This document shows, one piece after another, positions 488 through 54,981 of a stretch of 64,000 nucleotides of DNA. The DNA is from Pseudobdellovibrionaceae bacterium. Its GTDB lineage: Bacteria > Bdellovibrionota > Bdellovibrionia > Bdellovibrionales > UBA1609. The stretch is from positions 436 to 64,435 of the forward strand of contig JAMLIO010000004.1 in the NCBI GenBank assembly GCA_023954155.1, written 5' to 3'. Both the position numbers and the translations under genes were made by a program. Within the stretch, counting starts at the first letter, position 1. Each line of letters opens with the position of its first letter. Under the pieces are notes generated by a model that did no database searches, was not told where the DNA came from, and saw nothing but the letters and a program-made list of their open reading frames with translations.

Positions 488-811
488 GTGCAAAGTCAGA
501 AAATCAGAATCCGTTTAAAGTCTTTTGATCATAAGTTACTTGATCAATCTACGAAAGAGATCGTAGATACGGCACAAAGAACAGGAGCTAAGGTTACAGG
601 TCCAATTCCTCTACCAACAAGAATCAATAAGTACACAGTGCTTAGATCTCCTCACGTAGATAAAAAATCTCGCGAACAATTTGAGATCCGCACTCATAAG
701 AGACTATTAGATATTCTTGAGCCTACACAACAAACAGTGGATCAATTGATGAAATTAGATCTATCTGCGGGTGTACATGTTGAAATCAAACTAAGCAAAG
801 TTGAGAAGTAG
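488..811 (+). CDS. rpsJ: 30S ribosomal protein S10
   Basis: [20 protein letters not shown]... is typical S10, and it is the first gene of the S10 operon. GTG 488 is preferred: a purine-rich AAGGG lies 8 nt upstream and the N-terminus then has the usual form. GTG 479 from the ORF track is the alternative. Confidence 0.95.
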
Positions 812-18612: not shown

Positions 18613-19000
18613 AGTAACGCCCGAAAATCAGAATATTTTAATAAGGTAAGCGTAATTTGAAAAAAATCTACGACATTTTTTGTCATGTTTAGCTTTTATT
18701 CTGGATTAGAGGCTGTATATAAGGGTTTTTAGATAAGAATGGGCACAAAATTTAGTAAAATCCTTGATTTTAGTCCGTCAAAATTCTTTTTAGCTTTAAA
18801 AAAAGAATAAATATCAAACCTAAGAGACCAAAAAGGTCCAAAGCTTTTTCCTTTATTACAGAGAAAAAATTATCCGCTATTTTGTCGCGATCATTTTAAT
18901 CTTCAGGCGCTACGTTTAAGTCAGCAATAATTACAAGATCAAATATGGCACAGGCCCTGCTCTATATCAGATAAGATTTTATTTGGAGGATCTGATAAAA

Positions 19001-20506: not shown

Positions 20507-20575
20507 AAATAGGACTTTAATATAATATTTGTGTAGATTGTTTCACAATTACTAGAAGTGCGCCATACTCAAATT

Positions 20576-21610: not shown

Positions 21611-21759
21611 GCTTTGGGCGAAAAAAGCACATTGCTCTAAGGCTTATTTATGTGTCACGTGAAGGATCTGGCACGTATTTCTATACTTGAATTGAAATTA
21701 GCTACTTATTTATATGCGATGAGTTAAAGGCAGTTATAGATTTATAGTGCTGTTATATT

Positions 21760-23220: not shown

Positions 23221-23235
23221 AGATAAACATACTGT

Positions 23236-24372: not shown

Positions 24373-25077
24373 TTAATTCTCTATGTTAATTAGATTTTTT
24401 TCTATTAGAAATTCTGCATAAAGCCAATCATCCATTGTGTCTAGATCAACAGAGGCTCCGAGCCCTTCCATTATAAATGGGATTATTTTGTTGTTAAGAT
24501 AATTTTTTTCCTTTTTTAAAAAACTAGTGTCAGAAAGGTATAGTGACCCATTGTGTTCATAGGTTAATGGGAAATCTTGTCTTCGCAGTTGAGTTGTACT
24601 GGGTATAATTTGTTTAAGCTTGTTGTCGCATATCATAAATGAGTACTGAGGGGGCTTACGTTGTTTAATTACAGACACAGACATTAAAGCATTTTGATCA
24701 ATGGTTGTCTCAATAATTCCATTGATATCTTGGTATGACCTAAAGGGCGACGTGGGTTGAAGAAGAAGTAAATAATCATATTGTTTATTTACTTCTTCTA
24801 AGGCGTGTAGAATAACATCCATGCTTGTGCTTGTATCTAGCGCTAAGTGGTTTGGACGAATAAATGGTACTTTACATCCGTATTGTTCTGCTATGGCTGC
24901 GATTTCATTATCGTCAGTAGATAAGACTATATCGTCTAGATATTTGGATTTTTTTGCTGCTTCAATAGTCCACGCAATAAGTGGATGTTTGCCAAGTTGT
25001 TTTATGTTCTTTCTTGGAATTCCTTTGGATTGACCTCTGGCAGTAATAAGCGCGAGAATTGTTTTGTTTTTATACAT
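24373..25077 (-). CDS. neuA: N-acylneuraminate cytidylyltransferase (CMP-sialic acid synthetase)
   Basis: ILALITARGQSKGIPRKNIKQLGKHPLIAWTI is a typical CMP-NeuAc synthetase N-terminus. Start ATG 25077 (8-nt overlap with neuC) or 25098. Confidence 0.85.
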   Translation of the reverse strand: MYKNKTILALITARGQSKGIPRKNIKQLGKHPLIAWTIEAAKKSKYLDDIVLSTDDNEIAAIAEQYGCKVPFIRPNHLALDTSTSMDVILHALEEVNKQYDYLLLLQPTSPFRSYQDINGIIETTIDQNALMSVSVIKQRKPPQYSFMICDNKLKQIIPSTTQLRRQDFPLTYEHNGSLYLSDTSFLKKEKNYLNNKIIPFIMEGLGASVDLDTMDDWLYAEFLIEKNLINIEN

Positions 25078-26209
25078 ACGGGTTTTGATATAGTTCAATA
25101 AATTGTTTTTGATTTGAGATATTCCAAACGTTATTACTGAGTGTATTTAAAAAATGTTCAGCGCTTTTTCCATATCCGTAGTGATGGCAGATTGGGAAGC
25201 GTTTATTTCCATGTTCAGCAATTGTTTTAAGTATAAGATTGTTCTCAAAAGGAATGTCGGCAATGGACGTATGTTTAAAACGACGGTTCTGCCTTGTGCC
25301 TAAATTTATAGTTGGTATACCGTAAACAGGGGCCTCGTGTATGCCACAGCTAGAGTTGCCGATAATAAATCTACTATTTTTTAATAGGGTTAAGAAATAT
25401 TCAAATCTAAGGGAGGGGAAAATTTTAAATTTGCTGTTTTTTTGAAACAGCTCATAAGCTCTGAAAATATGATTGGAGCCAGAATCATTATTTGGATAAA
25501 TAACAACATAGTTTCTGCCTGATTCCAGCAACGCTTGTGCAAATATTTTTGCATTATTAAATGCAATTTCTTGGTTTTCGGTTGTAACTGGATGCAATAA
25601 TGCAATTGAGTAATCATCAAATTTTATGTCATAGTGTCGTTTTACTTGTGACAAGGAGGGAAGGTCATCGGACAACATTATATCAATATCAGGGGAGCCA
25701 ATATTAAATATGGCAGATTTGTCTTCTCCTAATTGCAGCAAACGTTTTTTTGCATTTTCATTAGCAACAAAATGTATATGTGAGAGTTTGGATACAGAAT
25801 GTCGAATAATTTCATCAATTGTGCCTGAGACCTCTCCGCCTTCAATATGGGCAACTAAGATATTCTGTAATGCACCGACGGAGGCACCAGCTAAGGCTTC
25901 GACTCGATCTCCATGTACTACAATAAGGTCAACGGGATTTTCGTGAAGATATCGACTTAGACCAATGATTGTATTAGCTAATACAATTTCCATATTGTCA
26001 TTTTCAATTTGGTTAAGAAATATAAATGTATTCTCGAACCCTGATTTTTCAATCTCAGTAAGTGTTCTGCCGTATTTACTCAATGTGTGCATGCCAGTGA
26101 CAAAAATTTGATATTCAAAATCGTTAGAGTATTTGACTGAATTGATAAGTGGTTTTAGCTTTCCAAAATCGGCTCTGGTTCCAGTAACGAATAGTATTCG
26201 TTTTTTCAT
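25070..26209 (-). CDS. neuC: UDP-N-acetylglucosamine 2-epimerase (hydrolysing)
   Basis: [22 protein letters not shown]..., HGDRVEALAGA, HIEGGEVSGTIDE. ATG 26209 overlaps the neuB stop (TAATG). Confidence 0.85.
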   Translation of the reverse strand: MKKRILFVTGTRADFGKLKPLINSVKYSNDFEYQIFVTGMHTLSKYGRTLTEIEKSGFENTFIFLNQIENDNMEIVLANTIIGLSRYLHENPVDLIVVHGDRVEALAGASVGALQNILVAHIEGGEVSGTIDEIIRHSVSKLSHIHFVANENAKKRLLQLGEDKSAIFNIGSPDIDIMLSDDLPSLSQVKRHYDIKFDDYSIALLHPVTTENQEIAFNNAKIFAQALLESGRNYVVIYPNNDSGSNHIFRAYELFQKNSKFKIFPSLRFEYFLTLLKNSRFIIGNSSCGIHEAPVYGIPTINLGTRQNRRFKHTSIADIPFENNLILKTIAEHGNKRFPICHHYGYGKSAEHFLNTLSNNVWNISNQKQFIELYQNPYV

Positions 26210-27255
26210 TAAACAATATCCTTCCAACTAAGGTGTTCGTCATTGGAGATATCTCTTGCTGCTTTCTTTCCAAGTACTGTTTCGAAGAATTCGGCTTTAA
26301 TTTCTCCTGTTCCAGGTCTTTTTACCCAAATATTATCTGTTGTGATTGCCTCACCTTTTTTAACGCTTTTTATAGTAACGACAGTGGCGTAAGCAAAGTC
26401 TCTAGTAACCTGTTCTTCTTCGAGTAAGCTATTTTTTGTGCCTCCTCGTTCTTGTTGCAGAATATTGCAACCATCAATTAACTCTCGAAGCGTAGTCGGA
26501 TCCATAGAGCATATGATATCAGGCCCCTGCCGATCCATTGAATCCGTAAAATGACGCTCTAAAATAGATGCACCTAAAGCAACGGCTCCAAAACAAGCTA
26601 AGTTATTTGTTGTATGGTCAGAAAGACCAATAACTGCGTCTGAAAACTCATTTGCTAAGTCTGTCATTGCTCCGAGTCTAACCAAGTGAAACGGTGTGGG
26701 ATATAAATTTGTTGTGTGCAGAAGAGCGTATGGGGTTTTGTGTTCCCTAAGAATTTCCACTGATTTCCTGACACTCTCTAGATTATTCATCCCAGTACTT
26801 AAGATAATCGGTTTGCCTAAGCGAGCTATATGTTTAATTAGAGGATAGTTATTACACTCGCCAGAACCAATTTTAAAAGCAGGAATATCAAACTTTGCTA
26901 AACGATCAGCGGCAGCTCTTGAAAATGGTGTGCTGATAAAGATGGCGCCTTTAGATTGTGTATATTGCATCAACTCGTATTCTTCGTCTTCGTTTAAGGC
27001 GCATTTTGACATTATTTCATAGATAGATTTATCGGAGTTTCCAGGAATAACTTTTTTTGCGTGGGTGCTCATTTCATCATCGATAATATGTGTTTGATGT
27101 TTAATAACCTCTGCGCCCCCAGAAATTGCAGCGTCAACCATTTGCTTTGCAACTTCTAAAGAGCCGTTATGATTTATACCTATTTCAGCAATTACAATTG
27201 GCGGGTATGCATACCCTACGGGGCGATCACCAATAAAAAAATGAGGGTAGTTCAT
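26209..27255 (-). CDS. neuB: N-acetylneuraminate (nonulosonate) synthase
   Basis: [26 protein letters not shown] and a C-terminal SAF domain. ATG 27255 with an AGGAG RBS. The ORF track start 27348 adds 31 unlikely residues. Confidence 0.88.
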
Positions 27256-27505
27256 AATGCTCCTAGTGCTTTTTAAGATGAATCTACTATGGAAATTCAA
27301 ATATTTGTATATTACATTGTAAGCACAAGCAGTATAGTTATCTGGCAAATATATGGAAAATTTCCAGTAGAATTTGTGTAAAATCGGTACCGTGACACGA
27401 AACGACGCGAAGCGTTAAGTCTGCCGAGTTCAATAGAAACTATATGCCTTTATGTAGTATTGAGGGCTTATACGGGATATATCTTCAACTAAGAAGGAAC
27501 TTATT

Positions 27506-28900
27506 TTGAAAAATATAGTTGTAATTTTAGCGGCAGGTTCTGGGGTCAGAAGTGGCTTTAATACCCCTAAGCAATTGGTAAAATTAGCAGGGCGTCCTGT
27601 TGTTTCACACGCTATAAAGCCTTTTGAGGTGAGTTCATTTATTGATGAAATTGCCATTGTAACTAGTCCAGATAGCTATACTGAAATTGAAGCTTTAGTT
27701 CATAAAGAGGGATACAAAAAAGTTAAAAAAATCATTCTAGGTGGTAGAGAGCGTTGGGAATCCTCTTGGGCTGCCATTAGTGCTTATCGAAATGAGTCAA
27801 GTAATGAGGAGCTAAATTTAATTTTTCATGATGCTGTTCGCCCTCTAGTCGATGAATTTATTGTTGAACGAGTCGTTAAAGCCCTGACGGAAAATTCTTG
27901 TGTGGATGTGGTTATCAACACTGTTGATACGATTGTTGAGGTTGATGATTCAAATAACTATATAGGTAGAATTTTAGATAGATCTAAGCTGCGTAATGGA
28001 CAAACCCCACAAGGCTTTCGCTACAATGTTATTAAGAAAGCCTATGAAAAAGCTATTGAGGACCCTAATAAGGTTTTTACAGATGATTGTGGTATTGTTA
28101 TGAAATATCTACCTGAAGAGAAAATATATTTAGTGGAAGGAAGCTCTTACAATCACAAATTAACCTATAACGAAGACCTCGCTATTTTAGATAAGCTTTT
28201 TCAAATGAAGAGGAACTTGGTGACAACCTCAAATTTGGATGAAGGATTTTCTAAATGTTTAGAAGGTTTAAAAGATAAAGTGGTTGTCATTTTTGGCGGA
28301 ACAAGTGGAATTGGCGAAGAGATTCAAAATATTTTACAAAATGCAGAAGTTAAGTCTTATCCTATATCAAGGAAAACAGGTTGTGATATTGCGTCCATAG
28401 AGTCTGTAGAGGCTGCTTTAAAAGAAATCAATGCTAAAGAAGGAAGAATAGATTTTATTATAAATACTGCGGGTATTCTGCCGAAACAATCGTTGGCGTT
28501 AATGGATTACAAAGATATTCATAATTCAATTGCCATAAACTATTTAGGAGCAGTTAATATTGCTTACGCGGGATTTCAATACTTAAGTCAAAGTTCTGGT
28601 GGGCTTCTTTTGTTTACATCAAGCTCTTATACATACGGTCGAGCGTTTTATAGTCTGTACAGCTCCAGTAAAGCGGCGATAGTCAATCTTGTGCAAGCTT
28701 TGGCTGAAGAATGGGGTGATTTTGGTGTTAATGTAAATTGTGTTAGCCCAGAAAGAACGTTGACCCCGATGAGAATTGCGGCTTTTGGTAAAGAAGATCC
28801 TATGACTTTGCTAAGTGCGGTGGATGTTGCTAAAGCTTCTATCAAGATTTTATGTATGGAAGAAACAGGTCTTGTGATTGATGTTAAAAGACAGCCCTGA
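27506..28900 (+). CDS. Bifunctional cytidylyltransferase (IspD/TarI-like) + short-chain dehydrogenase: Bcs1-like ribulose-5-P reductase / CDP-ribitol pyrophosphorylase
   Basis: N-terminal VVILAAGSGVRSGFNTPKQLVKLAGRPV (IspD/TarI). C-terminal GGTSGIGEEI ... YSSSKAAIVNL (SDR Rossmann fold and YxxxK). This is the same fusion architecture as H. influenzae Bcs1. TTG start. Confidence 0.7.
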   Translation: MKNIVVILAAGSGVRSGFNTPKQLVKLAGRPVVSHAIKPFEVSSFIDEIAIVTSPDSYTEIEALVHKEGYKKVKKIILGGRERWESSWAAISAYRNESSNEELNLIFHDAVRPLVDEFIVERVVKALTENSCVDVVINTVDTIVEVDDSNNYIGRILDRSKLRNGQTPQGFRYNVIKKAYEKAIEDPNKVFTDDCGIVMKYLPEEKIYLVEGSSYNHKLTYNEDLAILDKLFQMKRNLVTTSNLDEGFSKCLEGLKDKVVVIFGGTSGIGEEIQNILQNAEVKSYPISRKTGCDIASIESVEAALKEINAKEGRIDFIINTAGILPKQSLALMDYKDIHNSIAINYLGAVNIAYAGFQYLSQSSGGLLLFTSSSYTYGRAFYSLYSSSKAAIVNLVQALAEEWGDFGVNVNCVSPERTLTPMRIAAFGKEDPMTLLSAVDVAKASIKILCMEETGLVIDVKRQP

Positions 28901-28987
28901 GTATTGGCGTGTGACTCACGCTTGATGCGGAACGGCACTGGCTATCTGTTTGGTGTATTGGCTCTTCATATTTTATAATCCTGAACA

Positions 28988-30025
28988 ATGAAAGCTGTAC
29001 TGTTCTGTCAAAATCCATATGCGTTTGGCATTCTTAACCCAATCAAAGAAGAACTTTTGTCACAAGGTGATACCTATATGTGGTATGTGCCATCAAGATT
29101 ATTGGCACAGTTTCCTTACAAAGAAGATGTTTTTACTACATCTATAAAAGAGGTGGCTGATTTTGTTCCTGATGCGCATTTTGTGCCAGGGAATGAAATA
29201 CCGTACTATTTGAAGGGTGTAAAAGCGCAGGTTTTTCATGGCCTAGCATCTGAAAAGAAAGGCCATCTCCATATACGTCACTATTTTGATTTATACTTAA
29301 CACCAGGACCGCTTTATACGCGGGACTATGAATTTCTTAAAAACCGTTACCGTAATTTTGAAGTGGTAGAAACAGGATGGTCCAAGCTTGATCCTTATTC
29401 ATATAAGTACAGCGAGTTAGATGAAGAAAAGAGGCGTTTGTTAAAAGAAACCAATACCCAAAAGATAATTTTGTATGCTCCCACTTTTTCGCCTTCTCTG
29501 ACTTCTGCTCCTTATATGGTAAGCGAAGTGGAAAAGTTAGCTCGATATCCAGAGTATTTAATATTGATTAAGTTTCATGATTTGATGGATAAATCGTGGG
29601 TTCAAACTTATGAAGAATTGGCTTTAAAATATGAGAATATAAAAATCGAGAAGAACCACAGTATTTTAAAGTATCTTTTAATGGCAGATTTGATGGTGAG
29701 TGATACCTCATCGGTGATTTATGAATTTTTGCTTTTAGATAAGCCAGTAATCACGTTTAAGAATATTTCTCGTAATATTAAGTGGGATAATCAATTAGAG
29801 TACAAAAATTTGGATACACAAGTCCGCATCAACCTGCAGGATGATCCGTATCGTGAGAATCGTAAGTATATCTTTGATCAATTTCATCCCTATCGAGACG
29901 GAAACTCTTCTCGGCGCATGGTCATGGCTGTTAAAGACTATATTGTTAAATTTGGTGTTCCATCTGCAAGAAAGATATCTCTTCTAAGGAAGCTCAAAAT
30001 CATTAAGATGTTTGGGCGAATTTAA
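28988..30025 (+). CDS. CDP-glycerol/ribitol poly(alditol phosphate) phosphotransferase (TagB/TagF/TarL family)
   Basis: ILYAPTFSPS and ADLMVSDTSSVIYEFLLLDKPVI match the conserved TagF-family C-terminal blocks. Confidence 0.7.
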   Translation: MKAVLFCQNPYAFGILNPIKEELLSQGDTYMWYVPSRLLAQFPYKEDVFTTSIKEVADFVPDAHFVPGNEIPYYLKGVKAQVFHGLASEKKGHLHIRHYFDLYLTPGPLYTRDYEFLKNRYRNFEVVETGWSKLDPYSYKYSELDEEKRRLLKETNTQKIILYAPTFSPSLTSAPYMVSEVEKLARYPEYLILIKFHDLMDKSWVQTYEELALKYENIKIEKNHSILKYLLMADLMVSDTSSVIYEFLLLDKPVITFKNISRNIKWDNQLEYKNLDTQVRINLQDDPYRENRKYIFDQFHPYRDGNSSRRMVMAVKDYIVKFGVPSARKISLLRKLKIIKMFGRI

Positions 30026-30050
30026 TTATTGAGCAAAAGAGCATAGATTT

Positions 30051-30899
30051 TTATTGTGGATTATTCTTAATATAATCTTTGTAAGGTAGATCCAAATTTA
30101 AGTATTTTACTTTATGATGTGATTTTCGTGTTTCTACTGGAGGTAATTCCATGTAGTTGCCGTATAAACAGCTTAAAAATTGTTCGTACTCTTTCGGTGC
30201 CCACACTTCAAAATCATTGAAAGGGAGTCGTATGCGTTCGTCATACCATGATTTTTTATGTATCTCTTTTGTCTTCCAGGCTCCAAAATAATTTACAATG
30301 TACTCGGCTTGTTCCCAGGGTATAAGTCTGGCTAAGTTATCAATTTTTTTTAAAATGGTCTTTTTGGAATAAAATAACTTTGCTATCGAAGCAAGAATGT
30401 AATGTCCCATTCTGTGTAATAGAACAGGGGAGCGAGCTTTAAGTGTGAATACTCTGCGATACACTTTTAAATAGAAGCGCATTTTTTTGACATTTTTAAT
30501 TTGTTCCTTCTTATTAGAAGTGATGCCGTCTAATGGAAAAATATCTATATAGATACCTCTCGGGAAAGGCTGTGTGAAATTTGCTACTAAAGTCGTTCTT
30601 GTGTCGTAGAGTTTGGCATAGTGATATGGAAAAGTATCGTTGTCATGATGAGTTTCAAGAACATAATGAGGCGGTAGCATTTTGTGGGCATTAGCAATGA
30701 AGGTGTCGTATTCGGGTCTGGGGATCGAGATGTCGATGTCGTCATCCCAAGGAATAAAGCCCTTGTGACGAATGGCACCTAATAGGGTTCCGCCAACCGC
30801 ATAATATTGGACATTATTTTGGTCTAAGATTGTAACTAAGTCTTTAAACATCGGGCTTAGTCTTTTTTGTAGTTCTGCTATTTCGATCTCTGCTTGCAT
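30051..30899 (-). CDS. LicD-family phosphotransferase
   Basis: YYAVGGTLLGAIRHKGFIPWDDDIDISIPRPEY is the canonical LicD nucleotidyltransferase-fold motif. Confidence 0.8.
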   Translation of the reverse strand: MQAEIEIAELQKRLSPMFKDLVTILDQNNVQYYAVGGTLLGAIRHKGFIPWDDDIDISIPRPEYDTFIANAHKMLPPHYVLETHHDNDTFPYHYAKLYDTRTTLVANFTQPFPRGIYIDIFPLDGITSNKKEQIKNVKKMRFYLKVYRRVFTLKARSPVLLHRMGHYILASIAKLFYSKKTILKKIDNLARLIPWEQAEYIVNYFGAWKTKEIHKKSWYDERIRLPFNDFEVWAPKEYEQFLSCLYGNYMELPPVETRKSHHKVKYLNLDLPYKDYIKNNPQ

Positions 30900-31156
30900 A
30901 GAGTAAGTAAGTTACGATTTATTTTGATTTAAGTCATGGTGGCTTTGACTGAAGATTGTTGCTTTGCGTCGGCCTAGTGCTGAATGAAGAGGCTGCTTAG
31001 AAAATTTGGCTTTTATTATAAAAATATCCGTAACCCAGATATTTCAGTATATCTCCCCAATTAAATCATATTTGACCCTGCTATGGATTTTGAAAGGCCT
31101 TAGTTTGGTAATTTCTTGACATTTTTATGTATATACAATACACTACAGGAGTTGTT

Positions 31157-31249
31157 TTGGATTTTTCTTGGGATGAGACAAAAAACAGAAGGAACTTTAA
31201 AAAGCATGGCATTTGGTTTGATGAGTCGCTCAGAGGTGTTAGATTATGA
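31157..31249 (+). pseudogene. Truncated BrnT-family (DUF497) toxin remnant
   Basis: TTG-initiated 30-codon frame (M)DFSWDETKNRRNFKKHGIWFDESLRGVRL*. The N-terminal FxWDxxKxxxNxxKHGxxF motif of BrnT is present, but the frame stops about 60 codons early. The stop overlaps the brnA ATG (ATGA). Confidence 0.6.
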
Positions 31250-31494
31250 AAAAAAAATATAATTTTTCTGGAGCTACAAAACGTACTTCGCGTGTAAAGC
31301 GTCAAATTTCCGAAGACACTGTGAAGGTTCCGACTAGTATTCGTTTGGATGGCTCCTTGCTTGCTTGGTATAAAACTGAAGCTGAGAGGTTGGGGATTCC
31401 TTACCAAACATTGATAGGAAGCATTTTACATAGATATGCACAATCTGAGCTCATAGATCGTGAAGAGGTTTATAGAATTAAAAACTCTGGATGA
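31246..31494 (+). CDS. BrnA-family antitoxin (RHH/CopG-like)
   Basis: 82 aa. SIRLDGSLLAWYKTEAERLGIPYQTLIGSILHRYAQ is typical BrnA. Confidence 0.75.
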   Translation: MKKKYNFSGATKRTSRVKRQISEDTVKVPTSIRLDGSLLAWYKTEAERLGIPYQTLIGSILHRYAQSELIDREEVYRIKNSG

Positions 31495-31541
31495 ATAATT
31501 AGCTTTTTTTAAGAAGAAGCTCATTTAGCTAAATTTATTTT

Positions 31542-32678
31542 CTAAGGCATTTTTAATTCTTTACAAAATTGGATAAAAGGCAAAACCCTGCCGTTAGGAG
31601 CACTTCCGTAGTCTTGTGTTCCCAGGTGAACTTGATAGAAGGCGGGGATGTCGGTGCGCTCCTTAAAATATTGGATATGTGTCGAGAGCTTTTTTTCTCC
31701 AGTTTTACATTCTACGGCAAAAATGGGTTTTTTGTTTTTTAAAACTACAAAATCTATTTCTCGTCCATCTGTGTCTCTTAAATATCGAAGCTCCATATTA
31801 TAACCTTCGGTGTCTTCAATATAATGACAGAATTTTAAAAGCTGGCTGGCCACTAAATTTTCGAATCGAAATCCTCTTTCATCGACTTGGGACCAATCCC
31901 ATAAGTAATATTTTTGAAGTTTTTTAACGGCTCTGATTTTTTTTGCGCCATAAGGAGCTATCGAAAAGCAATAGTAAAGGTGAGACAAGATTTCTAACCA
32001 ACGTTTAATAGTGGGTTGAGAGACTTGTAAGTCCTCTTCGAGACTTTTTAAAGAAAGTGGGGACCCGACTCTAGACGGGAGAAGCTCTGCGAGTAAAAGT
32101 AAAAGAGATGTGTCTTTAACATTTTCTAAATCATTAAGATCTTCGTAAACAACTTTTTGCATTCGGTCTTTTTGCCAAATTCGGTGTTCGTTCTCATTTT
32201 TTGCAAATAAGGGTTCTGGAAATCCTCCAAATTGAAGTAAATTTTCTAAGTCTTTAGGGGAAGGGTTTTTTTTGTATTCTAAAGCAGAAAATGGATGAAG
32301 GCGAAAATATCTATACCTGCCAAGTAAGGAATCTCCTCCCTTTCTGAAATAATCTAATTTTGCTGACCCAGTTACAATAAACCGATGATCTTCTTTGTGT
32401 TTGTCATATAAACCTTTTAATAAGTTTCTCCATTTTCGATACTTATGAATTTCATCAAAAATGAGAATTTTTTCTTGTAAAGGAAGCTGATTTTTCAAAA
32501 TAAGAGACTTATCTAAGGTGTCATCCCAATTTAAGTAGGATTTGTTTTTAACGGTTGAAGGCGAAACAAAAGCTAAGCTTAAAGTGGTTTTACCCACTTG
32601 GCGAGGACCTCCAATAAAAACCATTTTTTTGTTTAATGCGGATTGAATATGGGGGCTGAGGTATCTTTTTGTTTTCAT
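31542..32678 (-). CDS. AAA-family ATPase with DUF4143 C-terminal domain (COG1373-like)
   Basis: Walker A FIGGPRQVGKTTL, Walker B ILIFDEIH, size of about 380 aa. Confidence 0.75.
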   Translation of the reverse strand: MKTKRYLSPHIQSALNKKMVFIGGPRQVGKTTLSLAFVSPSTVKNKSYLNWDDTLDKSLILKNQLPLQEKILIFDEIHKYRKWRNLLKGLYDKHKEDHRFIVTGSAKLDYFRKGGDSLLGRYRYFRLHPFSALEYKKNPSPKDLENLLQFGGFPEPLFAKNENEHRIWQKDRMQKVVYEDLNDLENVKDTSLLLLLAELLPSRVGSPLSLKSLEEDLQVSQPTIKRWLEILSHLYYCFSIAPYGAKKIRAVKKLQKYYLWDWSQVDERGFRFENLVASQLLKFCHYIEDTEGYNMELRYLRDTDGREIDFVVLKNKKPIFAVECKTGEKKLSTHIQYFKERTDIPAFYQVHLGTQDYGSAPNGRVLPFIQFCKELKMP

Positions 32679-32781
32679 TCAAGACTTCTTCCTTTAAGGA
32701 TTGTGTTTAATAAAGGTATGATAGCGAGAAGGTAGTCTAGCTATCAGTGCCATTACCTACACTTAATACTATTTTAGCGTT

Positions 32782-32848
32782 ATGAGTAGTTTAAAGTCAA
32801 CTTTGAAACACTCATGAGTAGTTTAAAGTTGACTTTAAACTACTCATG
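32782..32848. repeat. Two tandem palindromic units (operator-like)
   Basis: Unit 2 (32813-32848) is CATGAGTAGTTTAAAGT-TG-ACTTTAAACTACTCATG, a perfect 17+2+17 palindrome. Unit 1 (32782-32815) is ATGAGTAGTTTAAAGT-CAA-CTTTGAAACACTCAT, imperfect. The half-site ATGAGTAGTTTAAAGT repeats with a 32-bp period. Confidence 0.85.
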
Positions 32849-33244
32849 ATAAGGTTTGTTCTAAAATAAGACATCGTGGGCCGCATTTTATACTAATCGA
32901 CTTTATCAAGGCCTTTACGGGGTGGTTCCAAGCTTATCTAAAAATATCCGAAACTCAGCATCCATTGTGTGGATGCTTCAATTGCGCTGGATTTAAGCTT
33001 GTACAGATTTTGCGAGGACTTGGTTTTGATTCGTTTGGACTCTTTTATATACGAAATAGAAAAGATGGGTCCAAATATCATCTCATTATGAAGCGGTTTG
33101 GGCTCCTTAATTACCGATTTTGACCTGATCTCGCTTTATATTGGATTACACTAGGGTAATAAAAATCTTTACTTATTATATTTAATAAGTTGTAAGGATA
33201 GGCAACTTGGGTCAATGGCAAGTCAGATTTGAAAGTGCGAAATT

Positions 33245-33553
33245 ATGAAAAGAATGAAAGATGTATTATTAAATGTAGATGATTCAGAGTACACAATTGG
33301 TCAAATGGTGAGAGCTTTTAGAAAAGGGAAAAACTTAACCTTAGAACAAGTGCAAGAGCTAACGGGCATTTCCATCACCAACCTTTCGGCTATTGAAAAC
33401 GATAAAGTTGATCTTGGTGTAAAAAGAGCCAGTATGTTAGCCGTAGCATTTGGTGTTCATCCTAGAGATATCTTATTCCCGAATGACAAATGGGAAAAAT
33501 CTAAAGAAATTCAGAAGATTGAAGCTAGAGCAAGAAAAATGACAGCGGTTTAA
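33245..33553 (+). CDS. XRE-family helix-turn-helix transcriptional regulator
   Basis: IGQMVRAFRKGKNLTLEQVQELTGISITNLSAIENDK is a classic HTH_3 domain. Confidence 0.8.
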   Translation: MKRMKDVLLNVDDSEYTIGQMVRAFRKGKNLTLEQVQELTGISITNLSAIENDKVDLGVKRASMLAVAFGVHPRDILFPNDKWEKSKEIQKIEARARKMTAV

Positions 33554-33556
33554 AAA

Positions 33557-34267
33557 TCAGAGATTTAGCTTTCTTATCCTGTCCCATAAAAGAGCTTCGG
33601 GGATATCCATCTTAAGTGCTGACATGCATTCGTTAAGGCGGCCTCGGCGTTCTTTTAAACTTTCTATGGCTTTGGTGAGATCGCTTTTAATGCTTTCCCC
33701 GTAAGCTTGTTGTGCTTTTCTAATGGCTTGATGAAGCTGAGACGAAGGTATTGTAAGCATGGCCAGATCAATAAGGTCTCTGCTAAAAACACTATCGTCT
33801 GACCAACGATCAGAGTTAGCTAGTAGCTTGCTTGTTGCCATATCAAGCGGAGTCAAAGTGGGTACACCACATACAATGTCCTTAGTGTTAGGGGAGTCTA
33901 AAGAGACTCTTCCTTCAAAAATAATTTCAAACTTAATTTCAACATTACCCTGCTTAATCATGGTTCGAATCCCATATTGATCTGTGCGGACGTCACGAGA
34001 TACATTTATCTGTAAACCTTGGCGAATAAGGGGTGAGAGGTCGTTTTTTATTTTAATTAGCTGTCTTAATTTACGATAACCCTCTAAATCCGATATTAAA
34101 AAATCAATATCCACAGATTCGCGATATTCACCATGAGTTAAGACAATCGCAGTTCCGCCACCAAAAAGACACCCATGTGCTCTGAGTGCTTCAGCATCTA
34201 AAGCTTGGAGGACGGTGGCAATTCGTAAATGATGATCTCTTTTAAACAAGCAGTTTCTCCGTACCAA
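33557..34267 (-). CDS. Nucleotidyltransferase AbiEii/AbiGii-family toxin (DUF1814)
   Basis: CLFGGGTAIVLTHGEYRESVDIDFLISD matches the GGTAL...R.S.DIDF motif of AbiEii-type toxins. 26-nt overlap with the upstream HTH gene. Confidence 0.7.
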   Translation of the reverse strand: MVRRNCLFKRDHHLRIATVLQALDAEALRAHGCLFGGGTAIVLTHGEYRESVDIDFLISDLEGYRKLRQLIKIKNDLSPLIRQGLQINVSRDVRTDQYGIRTMIKQGNVEIKFEIIFEGRVSLDSPNTKDIVCGVPTLTPLDMATSKLLANSDRWSDDSVFSRDLIDLAMLTIPSSQLHQAIRKAQQAYGESIKSDLTKAIESLKERRGRLNECMSALKMDIPEALLWDRIRKLNL

Positions 34268-34739
34268 ATAAAGCCATAAGTTCTTGAATCAGTTTAAGTT
34301 CTTTGGATTCCATTGCATTTAAGTCTATATGACGCCAATTGCGTTCGTACAGATTCAATGCCTCTTCAGGACTAAGTGTTTGAGTTTGTTTAATTTGCCA
34401 TGCCAGCTTTTTTAACTGGGGATATTTGGACAAAGATATTTTACTTTTTTGAGTTAAATTAAGCTTGGAGGTAGACTGTGTTTTTAACTTAGGATCAAAA
34501 AGTTGAAGCTCGAGTCCTAGTACTGAAATCACATTCATGTACGCGCCTATTGTGACCGAGGTTTCGCCTCGCTCAATCCGATCTAAAGTCACACGAGAAA
34601 TTCCTGCGGCCTCTGCAGTGGCTACAGCAGATATTTTTAAACCTTTACGCCGCGCACGTATCTGCTGCCCCAAATGGAGCAGTGTTTTTTTTAATTTAGG
34701 GCCACTTGGCGGTGCTTTTGCTGGCATAATGTATCTCAT
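34242..34739 (-). CDS. XRE-type HTH protein, putative cognate antitoxin/regulator
   Basis: LGQQIRARRKGLKISAVATAEAAGISRVTLDRIERGE HTH plus a C-terminal domain of about 90 aa. The real start may be the second ATG (34727, MPAKAPP...). Confidence 0.65.
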   Translation of the reverse strand: MRYIMPAKAPPSGPKLKKTLLHLGQQIRARRKGLKISAVATAEAAGISRVTLDRIERGETSVTIGAYMNVISVLGLELQLFDPKLKTQSTSKLNLTQKSKISLSKYPQLKKLAWQIKQTQTLSPEEALNLYERNWRHIDLNAMESKELKLIQELMALFGTEKLLV

Positions 34740-48412: not shown

Positions 48413-50809
48413 ATGCAGCAGTTTTTTCTTTTAATCTTAGTGTTGCTTTTTGTGCAGGAGGGGTTTTCAAGCTGGGCGGCTCAACCAGCAGTTATTGCTG
48501 GAGTGGTCAGTACAAAAGATAAGAAAGGCCTTCGTTTACGCTCTTGCCCAAACACAAACTGTCCAATATCAGGAGCTCTAAAAGAGGGTAAAACTTATTA
48601 CTTTGAAAATAAAATGCACGGGGAGTGGTATAGAATATTTAATCAATATGCGCACGGTGATTATGTAAAAGTTGATCTTGGATATACAACGCAGGCTAAA
48701 GCCTCTAGAAGAAGTTTTAACGAAAATGTACTTAAAGAAGCTATTGATAAGGCTCTTAACGAGAAGTTTTTCAATGTAAAGCCTATCTCAGATAGTGGAA
48801 AGACAATTGACTCTTTAACTCTAGAAAGAGCAACTGATTTTGTGCAAGTGTATTCCTTTTTGCTCTATGGCCGTAGGCATTATGGTGTCTATGACATGTT
48901 ATCAGAAAATTCAGGCCTTTTGCATTTTACTGATGGCAAAATGGGATATTGTCTTTTAGCGTCCTCAGGTAGGAGTGTAGAAAAATCTCATGGGTTTTCG
49001 TACGATCTTATGACAAAAGACATTGTGGGATCTATAAATGTCAAACTAAAGAAGACATATAGCTTAGATCAGTTTCCATATAAGCATAAAGGATATTCAT
49101 TCTTTGGTAACATTTGTGCTATTGATTTTTTTGATAAAAAAACAGAACAAGATGTTCTTAATAAAGACATCTATGTCAGGGACTTAGGGCGTATATTAAA
49201 ATCTAGGAAATCTTTTTTAATAGATGAAATTGATAAAGTATCAAGTTTTGAAAATAAAAACCTAGTCGACAAAAGTAAAAACGAAATAGAAAAGTATGCT
49301 CCCTTGTTTACATCGCAGCTCAAAGCAGCCTATTTCTATAATATAAATCGATATCAAAATAGAGTATTTGCCTATTATGACAGTGCTAAAAAAGAAAATC
49401 AGATGAAAATCAGTGGCCTGATCAAAGATTTGGATTTGAATATTAAATATAAGTCTTTTGTTATTAAGTTTGATGCGAATACAAGCGGACCAAGAGGAAT
49501 GCAGTATAAAGGTGCGATTTATGCACAAGAAGACATGGAGATAAATCAGATAAAAATATATAAAGGCGAATATGTTGATCTTAATGAGTTGGTAAAGATC
49601 TTATATGTTGGTTCTAAGTACCCAAAATTAAAAGCCAATGTCGAGTTTGGGTTTGCACGCACGATAGATCAAAAAAACTTCAGTGATTTAAAAGGTTTGT
49701 TTTTTGATCTTAAAAATATAAATATTAAAAGTAAGTTATATGCGATTTCTCCGCATTATATTTCATTTTATGATGACGATCATGGAACTTTGGGTTTAGA
49801 GCCCAGAACCTTTAGCGTGACAGAAGAAGTTAGAGCCACAAATTCTAAATACTTTGGGGCTAATAAATTTATGAATCAACGTATAGACTTTGTTGTAGGT
49901 TATAGTCCGTCGGCTAATGAAAAACCTTTAGGTTGCGTAACAACAAATATAAATTATGTAAATCTAGAAAAAGAAATATTGGCTTTGGGTTTATCAGAAG
50001 ATCAGATTATTAAAATTCGTGGTAATGAAGTAGAAATTAGTAAACCACTGGATATATATGGGCTAATACAATTAGCACCTCATTCTAAACTTATTCTAAA
50101 TATATCGGATTGTATGAAGACTATTTTCTTATATCAGGCGATGGCTCAACCAGGAAGCCGTTGGCAAGGGCGTGTCCTAGAGTCTGAAACCCAAGTTTTT
50201 TTTGAAAAAGATAAGGTGGTTAGGATTTTAGATAAGGACGGCGAAAAGGCAGTGTATTCAAAATACACTACCAATATTAATGTAGGTTTCAAGCAAGGAG
50301 TAACCAAATACCCCTTGTGTATTCTAAACAAACTTGCGAAGTATTCACCACTAGAGAGATTAGTTCTAGAACCTTGTGATTATGCATTCAGTGAAGTGAA
50401 GCTGCATGAGATAGAACAAATAGATGCTGAAAAGGGAACTATTACTATTCAAGGTCGTACTTATCGAACTAAAGATATCACTTCGAAATTGACAGCTAGG
50501 ATAGATGAGCAAGAATTTTGGTTGCCCTTTGTTCCTGACCTAAATACGTTGAAATATAAAGATAGAATTCATAATATTATTCGTGAATATTATGTTTTCC
50601 CTTCTGCATGGGTTGGCAGTGACACTAAATTAAGTGGACGTGCAGATTATTGTGGAGATAAGTATGTAGACTGTGAGCCTGATTCACAACAGTCTGAAGG
50701 ACAACAGATCAGAACGATGGATTTTGAGGCATTTAAGAATAAGACCATTATGCTTAAGCTTTACGAAAGTATACCAGATCCTAGTAATTTTTGTGAGGGG
50801 TTCTGTTAG
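48413..50809 (+). CDS. Large secreted protein with N-terminal SH3b-like domain; remainder unknown
   Basis: Signal peptide. GLRLRSCPNTNCPISGALKEGKTYYFENKMHGEWYRIF...GDYV resembles bacterial SH3. About 700 aa have no recognised family. The C-terminal end is Cys-rich. Confidence 0.6.
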   Translation: MQQFFLLILVLLFVQEGFSSWAAQPAVIAGVVSTKDKKGLRLRSCPNTNCPISGALKEGKTYYFENKMHGEWYRIFNQYAHGDYVKVDLGYTTQAKASRRSFNENVLKEAIDKALNEKFFNVKPISDSGKTIDSLTLERATDFVQVYSFLLYGRRHYGVYDMLSENSGLLHFTDGKMGYCLLASSGRSVEKSHGFSYDLMTKDIVGSINVKLKKTYSLDQFPYKHKGYSFFGNICAIDFFDKKTEQDVLNKDIYVRDLGRILKSRKSFLIDEIDKVSSFENKNLVDKSKNEIEKYAPLFTSQLKAAYFYNINRYQNRVFAYYDSAKKENQMKISGLIKDLDLNIKYKSFVIKFDANTSGPRGMQYKGAIYAQEDMEINQIKIYKGEYVDLNELVKILYVGSKYPKLKANVEFGFARTIDQKNFSDLKGLFFDLKNINIKSKLYAISPHYISFYDDDHGTLGLEPRTFSVTEEVRATNSKYFGANKFMNQRIDFVVGYSPSANEKPLGCVTTNINYVNLEKEILALGLSEDQIIKIRGNEVEISKPLDIYGLIQLAPHSKLILNISDCMKTIFLYQAMAQPGSRWQGRVLESETQVFFEKDKVVRILDKDGEKAVYSKYTTNINVGFKQGVTKYPLCILNKLAKYSPLERLVLEPCDYAFSEVKLHEIEQIDAEKGTITIQGRTYRTKDITSKLTARIDEQEFWLPFVPDLNTLKYKDRIHNIIREYYVFPSAWVGSDTKLSGRADYCGDKYVDCEPDSQQSEGQQIRTMDFEAFKNKTIMLKLYESIPDPSNFCEGFC

Positions 50810-50820
50810 GGCTCAACCTC

Positions 50821-51150
50821 TTAATCGTTGAGTCCAAACAAATCTTCAAGTTCATTGTTTTGGTACATTTCCATTAAAATGTCGCTGCCGCCAACAAGTT
50901 CTTTTTTGTAGTAAAGTTGAGGAATGGTGGGCCAGTTGCCGTACTCTTTAATACCTTGGCGGATTTCTTCGTCTTCTAGAACATTGACGGTGTGGAAATT
51001 ATCGACACCGATTTCACGTAAAATGGCCACAGCACGAGCCGAAAAACCGCACTGAGGAAAAGCTGCATTGCCTTTCATAAATAGAACAATATCGTTTTTG
51101 CTCAATTCGTTTTCGATCTTTTGTTTGGTTTGTTCGTTAAGTTCTGACAT
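50821..51150 (-). CDS. grxD: Monothiol glutaredoxin (Grx4 family)
   Basis: PQCGFS active site and WPTIPQLY. ATG 51150 with an AGGAG RBS. Confidence 0.88.
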   Translation of the reverse strand: MSELNEQTKQKIENELSKNDIVLFMKGNAAFPQCGFSARAVAILREIGVDNFHTVNVLEDEEIRQGIKEYGNWPTIPQLYYKKELVGGSDILMEMYQNNELEDLFGLND

Positions 51151-51267
51151 GGTCACTCCTCTTAATTTTTGGTCCATCTTGCCGTTTGTTTTATAGTCTT
51201 AGGCATTTTAATATTCGATTTACACCTTAAAACTTGTTCAACTCTCATTAAATATGGTTTTCCTTAT

Positions 51268-51498
51268 TCAATCTAATTGAATGGGTCTGACACTTAAAGC
51301 GTGCAACTTGCCAGATTGGAACTCGGGTTTAAAAAGCTCTAAGATTTTTTGGTGGCGTTGCAATCGAGGTAAGGCGTTGATGGCATCACAAGCAATGCGC
51401 ACTTCAAAATTATTGCCACCACCAGTTTGATCAATCACGTAGAGTTGGGCGTCAGCATAGGTTTCTAAGATTCGAGCTTCAATGTCTTTAGGTGTCAT
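51268..51498 (-). CDS. BolA/IbaG-family protein
   Basis: 76 aa, RxxRHQxI-type motif (RLQRHQKILELF...LHALSV). Sits next to the monothiol glutaredoxin, a common pairing. Confidence 0.75.
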   Translation of the reverse strand: MTPKDIEARILETYADAQLYVIDQTGGGNNFEVRIACDAINALPRLQRHQKILELFKPEFQSGKLHALSVRPIQLD

Positions 51499-51964: not shown

Positions 51965-53794
51965 TTGGCTAAGATTACATCAAGCAGTACAGCCGAATAT
52001 TTTGCAAAGAACCTACAACAGGTGGGGTTTTCGTCAGCGACTAAAGCTGTTTTAACCACTTTAAAAGAAACAGTGGATAACTCATTAGATGCTTGCGAAG
52101 ATCATAAGATTCTACCTGAATTAAAGATTGAAATCGAAAAGATTGGCACTGGGGGTTCCAAAAGTGCGGATTTAATACGCATTATGGTGGAAGATAATGG
52201 CCCAGGGTTATCGCCAGAAGACCTTCCACGTGTATTTGGCGAGTACTTGGCCTCTTCAAAGTTTGGACGTGGTCGCTGTTCTCGTGGTCAGCAGGGGATT
52301 GGTATTTCTGCGGCCACCACATGGGCGCAGCTCACCAATGCCGCTGGGGCCAAGGTTTTAAGTAAAACAAAGAATATGCGTAAAGCCATAGAAATGCGCA
52401 TTGATGTAGATATCAAATCGAATAAAGGTCTAGTGAAAGATAAAAAGACTGTGGATTGGGACAAAGACCATGGTCTTCGTGTGGAGTTTGTGATTGATGG
52501 TCGCTTGCAGCTTAATGGAGATGGTGGGATTTTAACGTATCTTGAAGGAACCTCACTCGTAAACCCGCATTTAAAATTACATTATAAGATCAACGATGAC
52601 ATTGATGTGAACGTGGATCGCGTAACAGAAGACGTTCCTGTGGCTCCGCCAGCAACCTTACCTCATCCTCATACTATGAAATTGGGTGAGTTTATGACCC
52701 ATGCTCATTTATTTGGAAACGTAAACTTGCAGAAATTTTTAAAAACAGGTTTTTCTCGTGTGACTGATAGTACGTTAAGTGACTTTGTTAAAAATGGAAT
52801 GCCTAAAAAATTCTTAGCTCAGCCTATATCAAAAACTTCGGAGTCAGAATTTAAGGATATTTTTAAGGCTATACAAGAAACAGAGCTGCCTAACCCCACC
52901 ACGCGCTCAGTGCTTACCATTGGGGAAGAGGCTTTAGCCAACAGTATTCAACGTTTAGGTGCCATTGACTTTTTTAGTATTGTCACCCGTAAACCTAAAA
53001 TATGTGACTTTAAGCCTGTAGTGGTGGAAGTAGCCATTGCGAGGTTCTTAGATCGTGGGAAGGAAGACGAAAGTATTCAGCTTTTACGTTTTGCTAACCG
53101 TGTGCCTTTACAATTCGATAAGGCAGGATGTGCGATCACTAAAGCTGTGGAGTCCGTCAACTGGCGTTCTTATGGCCTGAACCAGTCCAAAAATAATTTG
53201 CCTTTGGGTCCTTACATTTTTGCGATCAGTGTAACGTCGCCGTTTATTAAGTTTAAAAACGCATCTAAAGAGACCATTGATTCTAGTGATGAATTAGTGG
53301 AAGAGATTCGTCGCGCGCTGATGCAAACAGGGCAAAAGCTTTCAAGACACATTCGTCGAGAAGCTAAAGCTGCGGATTTAGAGCGAAAACTTCAACATAT
53401 TGAAAAGTTTGGACCTATTTTGGTTCGTGGACTTGTGCAGATTGTGGGTGCGGCTGACAAACGTCGCGACAAAGCCACTGAAGGTTTAGAAAAGATATTG
53501 GGACGTGATACCAACGTAGCAGAAAAAGAATTAGAGGTCGCAGAGAGCCGCTTGCAGGATTTAAAACAAAAAGAAGGTTTTGATTCTAGTGGGTCCGAGG
53601 ATTTAGAGTCTTTCACAGAGAGCGAACAGCTGTCCTTAGATTCATCATTCGATAAAGATTCAAGAAAGATGAGCTCAAAACCCAACAAGAAGAAAAGTAA
53701 GACTTCAGGCAAAAAGGCAGTGAAGAAAGCGTCTTCCACAAAGGCCGCTGCAAAAAAAGCATCTAAGAAAGTGGCAGCAAGACCTAAAAAATAA
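51965..53794 (+). CDS. top6B: DNA topoisomerase VI subunit B (GHKL ATPase + transducer) with Lys/Ala-rich C-terminal tail
   Basis: The N-terminus STAEYFAKNLQQVGFSS...LKETVDNSLDACEDHKILPELKIEI parallels archaeal Top6B. Bergerat-fold N box (ExxxNSLDA), G1 (EDNGPGL) and G2 (GQQGIGISAA) are present. TTG start 8 nt after GGAGG. Confidence 0.8.
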   Translation: MAKITSSSTAEYFAKNLQQVGFSSATKAVLTTLKETVDNSLDACEDHKILPELKIEIEKIGTGGSKSADLIRIMVEDNGPGLSPEDLPRVFGEYLASSKFGRGRCSRGQQGIGISAATTWAQLTNAAGAKVLSKTKNMRKAIEMRIDVDIKSNKGLVKDKKTVDWDKDHGLRVEFVIDGRLQLNGDGGILTYLEGTSLVNPHLKLHYKINDDIDVNVDRVTEDVPVAPPATLPHPHTMKLGEFMTHAHLFGNVNLQKFLKTGFSRVTDSTLSDFVKNGMPKKFLAQPISKTSESEFKDIFKAIQETELPNPTTRSVLTIGEEALANSIQRLGAIDFFSIVTRKPKICDFKPVVVEVAIARFLDRGKEDESIQLLRFANRVPLQFDKAGCAITKAVESVNWRSYGLNQSKNNLPLGPYIFAISVTSPFIKFKNASKETIDSSDELVEEIRRALMQTGQKLSRHIRREAKAADLERKLQHIEKFGPILVRGLVQIVGAADKRRDKATEGLEKILGRDTNVAEKELEVAESRLQDLKQKEGFDSSGSEDLESFTESEQLSLDSSFDKDSRKMSSKPNKKKSKTSGKKAVKKASSTKAAAKKASKKVAARPKK

Positions 53795-53811
53795 TTCGGA
53801 GATAAAAAGAT

Positions 53812-54981
53812 ATGGCAAAGGCAAGAGTAGCAGGATCAGGGAATTCACAGAAAGACATCATTTATAAAGCAAAGGCCATCTGTGAGGGCATGTTAAGTGA
53901 TTTAGAAAAGGCCAAGCGCCCTGTCTTGGAATCTATCAAGTGCAGCTTGGACAATTCAGAATACGACCCAAGGCTTGGGTATTTGACTCCAGCGGGAAAG
54001 ATGGTGCGCTCAGAGTTAAATGTGTCTTCAGTGCAAAAATTAGCACGTACAGTGTTTATGTTAGATATTTTACTTAACAACGTAAATACAGGTGGTGTGA
54101 ACACCAAAAGAGAGCTGTACTATATGGCAAAAGGTTTGGTGAAAAGCGATAAAGAGCTTAAACCCATAGACTTTGATGACCAGAATGAAAGTGACTCCAT
54201 TATTGATTTTATCACGGATATGCTTGAGGTGTATCGCGAAGAGATGAATTGTTTTGCGAATGATCGTGGGGGACAAACTTACTCACAACAGCTTGTGGTC
54301 ACTGAAACTTTAAATGATGGAACTAAAGCTGTTATTGACTTGAGCTCATTAGGTACTACCCCTTTTCAGCCCAAGAACAAACCACAGGCCTTAACATTAA
54401 AGGCTAAAAGTAAAATTGATTTTTGTTTGGTTGTAGAATCAGAAGGTACGGCGAACACTCTGGTAAGTAATGGGTTTACCAAAAGAAATAAGTGTATCCT
54501 GATGGGTGCTCAAGGGGTGCCTAGTAACGGGGTCAGAGGTTGGTGTAAATTGATTCAAGATCAGCTTAAGATTCCTATTTATTTCTTCGGAGATCTGGAT
54601 GCGTACACTCTGCAAAATATTTACAGAACTCTTAAAGCAGGATCGGCTGCGAGTTTGATTCGTAACAAAGACTTTTCCGCTCCAGATGTAAAGTTTTTAG
54701 GAGTTTTGCCTGAAGATATTAAAAAATACGACCTTCACTATTATGATGTGAAGTCTAACGATGCTTCTGAAATGCGAGCTCTTAAAAAAGCCAAAGATGT
54801 TCTTGCTAATGACCCCTTTTTCCAGGATGCAAAAAACAAAAAGGTCGCAAGCATTCTTAACTTTTTGATCAAAAATAGAATACGTTGCGAACAGCAAGCG
54901 ATCTTTAGTGTGGATCCCAAGGACCCCATAATGCCCGAGAAGATCATTCTTAAGAAGATCAAAGAAAAGTCTTGGGTGTAA
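53812..54981 (+). CDS. top6A: DNA topoisomerase VI subunit A (Spo11-like)
   Basis: KRELYYMAKG (catalytic Tyr region of the winged-helix 5Y-CAP). Toprim Glu (VVESEGTANTL) and DxD (FFGDLDAYT). Immediately downstream of top6B. Confidence 0.8.
   Translation: MAKARVAGSGNSQKDIIYKAKAICEGMLSDLEKAKRPVLESIKCSLDNSEYDPRLGYLTPAGKMVRSELNVSSVQKLARTVFMLDILLNNVNTGGVNTKRELYYMAKGLVKSDKELKPIDFDDQNESDSIIDFITDMLEVYREEMNCFANDRGGQTYSQQLVVTETLNDGTKAVIDLSSLGTTPFQPKNKPQALTLKAKSKIDFCLVVESEGTANTLVSNGFTKRNKCILMGAQGVPSNGVRGWCKLIQDQLKIPIYFFGDLDAYTLQNIYRTLKAGSAASLIRNKDFSAPDVKFLGVLPEDIKKYDLHYYDVKSNDASEMRALKKAKDVLANDPFFQDAKNKKVASILNFLIKNRIRCEQQAIFSVDPKDPIMPEKIILKKIKEKSWV

Follow-up and report, generated by a model that had tools for sequence, protein, structure and literature searches.

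Why some bacteria keep a type II topoisomerase of archaeal type is regarded as an open question (PMC11302465). It is raised again by a pair of adjacent genes in the 64,000-nucleotide stretch of DNA analysed here (referred to as the window), which comes from contig JAMLIO010000004.1 of a Pseudobdellovibrionaceae bacterium (assembly GCA_023954155.1). The two genes, top6B and top6A, code for subunits B and A, respectively, of DNA topoisomerase VI (topo VI). We consider it highly probable that the pair specifies a genuine type IIB topo VI, that it is an old and vertically inherited core operon of the Bdellovibrionales, and that the enzyme most likely acts in place of topoisomerase IV (topo IV). 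In this work we establish the identity of the pair, the integrity of its catalytic sites, its conservation and its chromosomal context.

The identification of topo VI at this locus is correct but not new, having been published for Bdellovibrio bacteriovorus and being already annotated in NCBI. According to Allen and Maxwell (2024), B. bacteriovorus is among the 17 bacterial families with topo VI, and the bacterial enzymes are placed inside the archaeal clade, which implies at least two transfers (PMC11302465). A 2023 review of the Bdellovibrio chromosome likewise lists Bd2864/Bd2865 as topo VI (PMC11318664). By exact-sequence match, our Top6B is identical to MCO5113721.1, named ‘DNA topoisomerase VI subunit B’ in NCBI, and a small HNH protein encoded just upstream is identical to MCO5113720.1. 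MCO5113722.1, named ‘DNA topoisomerase VI’, has the same length as Top6A and lies in the Top6A 90% cluster, and all three records belong to a single contig (260,610 bp) in a Pseudobdellovibrionaceae metagenome-assembled genome. Three minor features of the clade are new here: a disordered, Lys/Ala-rich extension of Top6B, a loop without basic residues at the position of the M. mazei KGRR motif, and the conserved upstream HNH gene.

Top6B scored 510.4 bits against NCBIfam model NF003218 (cut-off 274; E 5e-153) and 380.7 bits against TIGR01052 (cut-off 380.7), and its Pfam matches were Topo-VIb_trans (6.7e-46, residues 311-474) and HATPase_c (9e-9). The best match in the PDB was Top6B of Methanosarcina mazei (2q2e_B, E 2.9e-83), followed by Sulfolobus shibatae Top6B, and residues 5-484 are collinear with residues 14-484 of the M. 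mazei protein. An AlphaFold2 model of Top6B, built from 71 sequences, had a mean predicted local distance difference test (pLDDT) score of 73, with most of the core at 80-95 and low confidence confined to the ATP lid, the strap at the N-terminus and the region past residue 538. When this model was searched with Foldseek, 16 Top6B chains were returned (E 1e-41 to 1e-31), and MutL and GyrB/type IIA ATPase domains followed at about 1e-10. MutL-type profile models matched Top6B at E 6e-4 over 68 residues only. A MutL/Hsp90-type GHKL identity was therefore rejected, both on profile scores (6e-4 against 5e-153) and on fold ranks (about 1e-10 against 1e-41).

The residues on which the ATPase depends are intact. 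Invariance was assessed in a sample of 70-80 species whose proteins are 60-86% identical to those described here. In 70 Top6B homologues the N box (ETVDNSLDA, with E35 and N39), the G1 box (D77-N-G-P-G81) and the G2 box (G108-QQGIG-113) are invariant, and these boxes align to those of M. mazei and S. shibatae Top6B. The switch lysine, K435, is also invariant and is accompanied by a modelled helix at 442-494. The DNA-binding motif WKxY takes the form W400-R-S-Y403, its Trp and Tyr never varying while position 401 is Arg in 53 of the 70 homologues and Lys in the other 17. The H2TH domain, a hallmark of type IIB enzymes that lies between the GHKL and transducer domains, is represented by an unbroken alignment with M. 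mazei across residues ~227-305 and, in the AlphaFold2 model, by a helical module at 240-305 (pLDDT 78-95).

Top6A matched the Pfam families TP6A_N (5.2e-15) and TOP6A-Spo11_Toprim (2.4e-38), exceeding the gathering score of both, and its PDB matches included the Methanocaldococcus jannaschii protein (1d3y_A, E 2.3e-32) and the M. mazei A subunit (E 9e-19). The second Tyr of the motif KRELYY, Y104, aligns with the catalytic Y103 of M. jannaschii (residue 35 of the 1d3y fragment plus 68), and its partner Arg, R100, aligns with R99. In the Toprim domain, E209 aligns by numbering with E197 of M. jannaschii, and D261-L-D263 falls in the aligned motif FGDLDAY/FTDGDPY. R100, Y104, E209, D261 and D263 are invariant in 79 of the 79 homologues that cover those columns. 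Among more distant Top6A representatives, several (P0160, P0164, P0166, P0173, P0194, P0220, P0221 and P0248) are 830-950 aa long and interrupted by inteins with homing-endonuclease-like inserts, the sites of insertion being either at or beside the DxD motif of Toprim or within the winged-helix domain (WHD). The possibility that these long proteins are B-A fusions was rejected, as the sequences are intein-interrupted Top6A.

An earlier note on this DNA had described two adjacent open reading frames (ORFs) with a 17-nt gap, the first a GHKL/Bergerat ATPase with N, G1 and G2 boxes and an N-terminus collinear with archaeal Top6B, the second a Spo11/Top6A-like protein with KRELYY, a Toprim Glu and a DxD motif. 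The coordinates are exact in the ORF list, the ATPase boxes are all present in a protein that matches 2q2e_B at the E value given above, and the Top6A residues are borne out by the 1d3y alignment. The catalytic tyrosine, whose loss the same note had considered, is present in a proper alignment, and the profile searches assign the pair to topo VI instead of the combination of a MutL/Hsp90-type GHKL protein with a JetD-like Toprim protein.

The Toprim and winged-helix fold is common to Top6A, Spo11 and JetD/MksG, and the KGRR loop is not conserved in our Top6B. These two observations would suit a DNA-breaking or defence module, in the form of either a Spo11/TopoVIB-like break maker or a JetD/MksG Toprim nuclease with a GHKL ATPase. 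However, PADLOC, which includes Wadjet/Mks models, gave no match at E values up to 0.01 for either Top6B or Top6A, and on this basis the JetD/MksG reading was rejected. No SMC or kleisin genes, as would be expected of the JetABC/MksBEF partners of such a nuclease, were found among the neighbours of the locus. Moreover, the ATPase motifs, the switch lysine, the H2TH domain and the transducer are all kept and invariant, unlike in TopoVIB-like proteins. We give a module of this kind practically no chance.

To place the topo VI pair in its lineage, we scanned one genome per GTDB species and found Top6A relatives in 322 genomes, of which the best 80 were inspected. These 80 are 70-86% identical to our Top6A and nearly all are labelled Bdellovibrionales, Pseudobdellovibrionaceae, Bdellovibrionia or Bdellovibrionota; a few have only broad labels (Deltaproteobacteria, Proteobacteria, Pseudomonadota or simply ‘bacterium’), and single loci are assigned to Oligoflexia and Bacteriovoracaceae. 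In 76 of the 80 loci top6B immediately precedes top6A, the remainder being contig ends or, once, a locus where it was not found, and the two genes mostly overlap by 4 nt or are separated by less than 40 nt. The order grx-bolA-HNH-top6B-top6A is common to about 40 species, with different genes downstream. When library sequences are clustered at 50% identity, a single full-length Top6A (53% identity) represents the whole clade, and the next full-length Top6A proteins, outside the clade, are 27-36% identical. At the nearest locus outside the clade (L081, Top6A 34% identical), a 76-aa hydrophobic ORF of no family (1163-1393, + strand) stands between top6B and top6A.

The surroundings are those of a bacterial chromosome. 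Positions 1-13 kb of the window hold bacterial ribosomal-protein operons, SecY, Adk and RpoA, and the locus is flanked by genes for a BirA-like ligase, NadC, a response regulator, LptF/G, Def and Fmt. The GC content of top6B and top6A is 0.42 and 0.40, and that of their third codon positions 0.37 and 0.40, all within one standard deviation of the means of the ORFs in the window (0.405±0.035 and 0.362±0.066, respectively). No integrase, transfer RNA (tRNA) gene or repeat was found at the borders of the locus; the sole tRNA gene in the window is at 17.6 kb, 34 kb away. Taken together, the distribution, the synteny, the composition, the borders free of integrase and tRNA, and the distance of the outgroups indicate that the pair is an old acquisition that has since been inherited vertically as a core Bdellovibrionales operon, and not a recent import.

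Bacterial topo VI is nonetheless ultimately archaeal by horizontal gene transfer (PMC11302465), and an HNH nuclease gene adjoins the pair, as might be expected had the locus arrived recently as the cargo of a mobile element, whether Topo VIII/Mini-A-like or an archaeal operon taken up not long ago. This account is effectively refuted by the host-like composition of the genes, by their synteny in about 40 species and by borders lacking integrase, tRNA gene and repeat; the presence of the pair in 322 genomes also counts against it. Furthermore, the models that score best are equivalogs of topo VI, in which B and A are separate subunits, and the HNH protein is of the chromosomal Gmet_0936 type. 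The presence of a full Top6B, the chromosomal housekeeping context, the conserved synteny and the host-like composition are likewise unlike Topo VIII or Mini-A, whose genes reside on plasmids, integrated elements or viruses and whose B moiety is divergent or missing. We judge recent mobile cargo to be very improbable.

The earlier note had already placed the pair outside any obvious mobile element, a view that the housekeeping flanks, composition and synteny uphold. Its account of the neighbours was accurate for bolA and grx upstream and the lipoprotein-like ORF downstream, but overlooked the 92-aa HNH gene. Its remark that topo VI has been reported only sporadically in bacteria does not fit this order, where the scan of species-level genomes shows the enzyme to be widespread. 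The link to filamentous growth that it raised is speculative. In one bacterial order, then, topo VI is encoded by a core operon that is conserved, syntenic and catalytically intact and that hundreds of species-level genomes carry.

On the model of the homologous archaeal enzyme, Top6B and Top6A would assemble into an A2B2 heterotetramer with two gates. ATP binding would bring about dimerisation of the Top6B GHKL domains and the capture of one duplex (the T-segment), and the transducer would relay the ATP signal to the Top6A dimer. Top6A would then cut the second duplex (the G-segment) by means of Tyr104 and a Mg2+ ion bound by the Toprim residues E209, D261 and D263, the T-segment would move through the break, and Top6A would reseal the G-segment. 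The two genes are probably co-transcribed or translationally coupled. The cellular job of the enzyme would be to unlink replicated chromosomes and remove crossings, substituting for topo IV.

ATP-dependent decatenation instead of topo IV is the most likely role of topo VI here, because bacteria that have topo VI but belong to neither Pseudomonadota nor Terrabacteria, among them B. bacteriovorus, are reported to be without topo IV. Topo IV occurs alongside topo VI only in members of those two groups (7 of the 17 families; PMC11302465), and by the count and the taxonomy table of that study, which classifies proteins by the GyrA box, B. bacteriovorus falls outside the ParC-bearing families. In addition, the M. 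mazei enzyme senses DNA crossings and acts preferentially as a decatenase (PMC8837201). We infer that the Pseudobdellovibrionaceae pair is enzymatically active, that it serves as a decatenase and that this genome lacks topo IV.

Several points weigh against this interpretation. Top6A scored 398.5 bits against NCBIfam model NF003335, which is its top model by more than 230 bits but has a cut-off of 424, slightly above the score. The 64-kb window contains no gyrase or topo IV genes, and our literature search found no biochemical or genetic study of any Bdellovibrionales topo VI. One B. bacteriovorus gene is annotated ‘Top IV (Bd0005)’ (PMC11318664), in conflict with the ParC-absent classification. 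Strand passage by the M. mazei enzyme is lost when KGRR186-189 of its Top6B is neutralised (PMC5922973), and by numbering this motif aligns here with L183-N-G-D186 (52511-52522, + strand), where there is no basic residue. Since the KGRR position is occupied by LNGD, the sensing of DNA crossings by Bdellovibrionales topo VI may differ from that of M. mazei. In the clade the loop reads LNG(D/E)GG and is preceded by an invariant R180. The idea that loss of the KGRR loop is unique to the clade was weakened by a comparison of four distant Top6B proteins, in which the position is variable and in some (L084) also non-basic; it is not a strict criterion of the family.

If Bd0005 were indeed topo IV, topo VI could be a specialised second decatenase beside it, dealing for example with the many chromosome copies in the filament before synchronous septation, or with nucleoid compaction. 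Topo VI has been suggested to contribute to chromosome architecture (PMC11318664), and the basic Top6B tail of the clade could reflect adaptation to chromatin. On the other hand, the seven ParC-bearing families are all Pseudomonadota or Terrabacteria by GyrA box and so do not include B. bacteriovorus. Bd0005 presumably lies next to the origin, where gyrA is usually found. The literature search turned up no expression or phenotype data for such a role. A second decatenase seems unlikely to us, and replacement of topo IV by topo VI remains our preferred interpretation.

The Top6B tail is modelled without secondary structure from residue 538 onwards, with pLDDT below 50 throughout. It consists of a linker rich in Ser, Asp and Glu, followed by a basic end rich in Lys, Ala and Ser. 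Such tails are frequent but not universal in the clade, and their sequence and length are very variable (5-114 aa beyond the transducer). Over the last 30 aa the net charge is at least +8 in 35 of 70 homologues and zero or negative in 14.

The HNH protein encoded upstream of top6B gives a full-length match to the Geobacter metallireducens Gmet_0936 HNH endonuclease (PDB 4h9d, E 2.1e-31), and the Cys and His/Asn positions of its motif are conserved among related loci. Of 65 informative loci, 43 have this gene on the top6B strand within the 1 kb preceding top6B; the Bdellovibrio-like subclade lacks it. The adjacency could reflect either conserved synteny or a functional link. A specific partnership with topo VI is weakened by the near full-length Geobacter homologue and by the absence of the gene from the Bdellovibrio-like subclade. 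A more far-reaching proposal would be that topo VI of the Bdellovibrionales has fully replaced topo IV and been re-tooled, losing the crossing-sensor loop, gaining a histone-H1-like, Lys-rich tail that tethers DNA, and working with a Gmet_0936-type HNH nickase as partner (e.g. to clear trapped cleavage complexes), all as adaptations to unlinking several chromosome copies at once in the predatory filament. We regard this combination as unlikely.

The features of the locus are collected in Table 1. The top6B gene starts with TTG, 6 nt after a GGAGGAG, and the ATG start of top6A is preceded by GGAG as its ribosome-binding site, so that each gene has a ribosome-binding site of its own; 17 nt separate the top6B stop from the top6A start. 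The HNH gene sits between bolA and top6B and ends 83 nt before the top6B start, on the same strand. A scan of 51.1-55.3 kb for promoters and terminators found fewer promoter-like sites than in shuffled sequences and no terminator that would convincingly separate HNH, top6B and top6A, and was uninformative on operon structure.

Table 1. Coordinates of the topo VI genes, their domains and the neighbouring genes (positions in the window).
Feature	Position	Strand	Basis or remark
top6B, DNA topoisomerase VI subunit B, 609 aa	51965-53794	+	Profile, PDB and fold matches
top6B domains: GHKL ATPase ~aa 1-226; H2TH ~227-305; transducer ~306-537; disordered tail 538-609			
Top6B C-terminal tail, aa 538-609	53576-53791	+	Ends in KKKSKTSGKKAVKKASSTKAAAKKASKKVAARPKK
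top6A, DNA topoisomerase VI subunit A, 389 aa	53812-54981	+	Profile and PDB matches
top6A domains: WHD/5Y-CAP (TP6A_N) aa 75-146; Toprim aa 204-370			
Catalytic Tyr codon, Top6A Y104	54121-54123	+	Alignment with M. jannaschii Y103
Small HNH endonuclease, 92 aa	51603-51881	+	Pfam HNH 7.5e-13
Glutaredoxin gene	50821-51177	-	Upstream of top6B
BolA gene	51268-51498	-	Upstream of top6B
Lipoprotein-like ORF, 702 aa	55066-57174	+	Downstream of top6A

In the 702-aa ORF downstream of top6A, a long linker rich in Pro and Glu is accompanied by a C-terminus with weak, lysozyme-like SLT_3 similarity, and a homologue was found in one of the 80 related loci. On the other side, a secreted or lipoprotein-like ORF of 798 aa (48413-50809, + strand; GC 0.34) gave a weak SH3_3 match only. 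Elsewhere in the window, a low-GC stretch at ~20500-33000, with ORF GC of 0.31-0.37 against a window mean of 0.405, carries polysaccharide-biosynthesis genes, including those for a pyruvyl transferase, a UDP-GlcNAc 2-epimerase, an IspD-SDR fusion and a glycerophosphotransferase. This stretch is probably a variable surface-polysaccharide island. At its edge, positions 31542-34739 (- strand) encode an AAA_14/DUF4143 ATPase (31542-32678), an AbiEii nucleotidyltransferase toxin (33557-34267) and a helix-turn-helix (HTH) antitoxin-like protein (34242-34739), and the AbiEii and HTH genes, which overlap, make up a type IV toxin-antitoxin or abortive-infection pair. Three ORFs of 657, 507 and 350 aa (14846-16819, - strand; 18983-20506, + strand; 20558-21610, + strand) matched no Pfam family at E values up to 0.001.

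Among known systems, the best structural reference is M. mazei topo VI (2q2e, and 9o0g/9o8p by cryo-electron microscopy). As in M. mazei, the B subunit here precedes the A subunit and the domains follow the same order (GHKL, H2TH and transducer; WHD and Toprim). The catalytic residues, the switch lysine and the WKxY motif (WRSY here) are all matched, and the fold of the B subunit agrees at E 2e-41. The differences are that M. mazei Top6B has an Ig-like C-terminal domain where the protein described here has a disordered Lys/Ala-rich tail, that KGRR186-189 corresponds to LNGD, and that the two B subunits are only about 30% identical in a structure-based alignment. M. mazei is also an archaeon, whereas the host here is a bacterium that, judging from the published B. 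bacteriovorus inventory, has gyrase as well.

The tail recalls the lysine-repeat C-terminal domains of actinobacterial topoisomerase I, which are likewise of low complexity and rich in Lys and Ala, although the resemblance is one of composition only and topoisomerase I is a type IA enzyme, of a different class from topo VI. The lysine repeats of Streptomyces TopA stabilise DNA binding and confer processivity (PMC5714199). In proposed function, the closest counterpart is bacterial topo IV (ParC/ParE), which would share with the Bdellovibrionales enzyme the ATP-dependent decatenation of daughter chromosomes. Topo IV is a type IIA topoisomerase whose cleavage subunit is unrelated and not homologous to Top6A, and it has three gates against the two of topo VI and leaves 4-nt rather than 2-nt overhangs. 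M. mazei topo VI has been reported, as unpublished data, to complement an Escherichia coli parE(ts) mutant (PMC11302465).

The closest relatives of the pair are within the order itself. Topo VI of B. bacteriovorus HD100 (Bd2864/Bd2865) belongs to the same order-level clade, and a locus of Bdellovibrio sp. (L079) encodes subunits 74% (A) and 65% (B) identical to those described here. The Bdellovibrio-like subclade differs in being without the HNH/bolA/grx block that is found upstream of our pair. Bdellovibrio is culturable and genetically tractable, and is thus a good system in which to ask whether a bacterium can rely on topo VI as its only dedicated decatenase.

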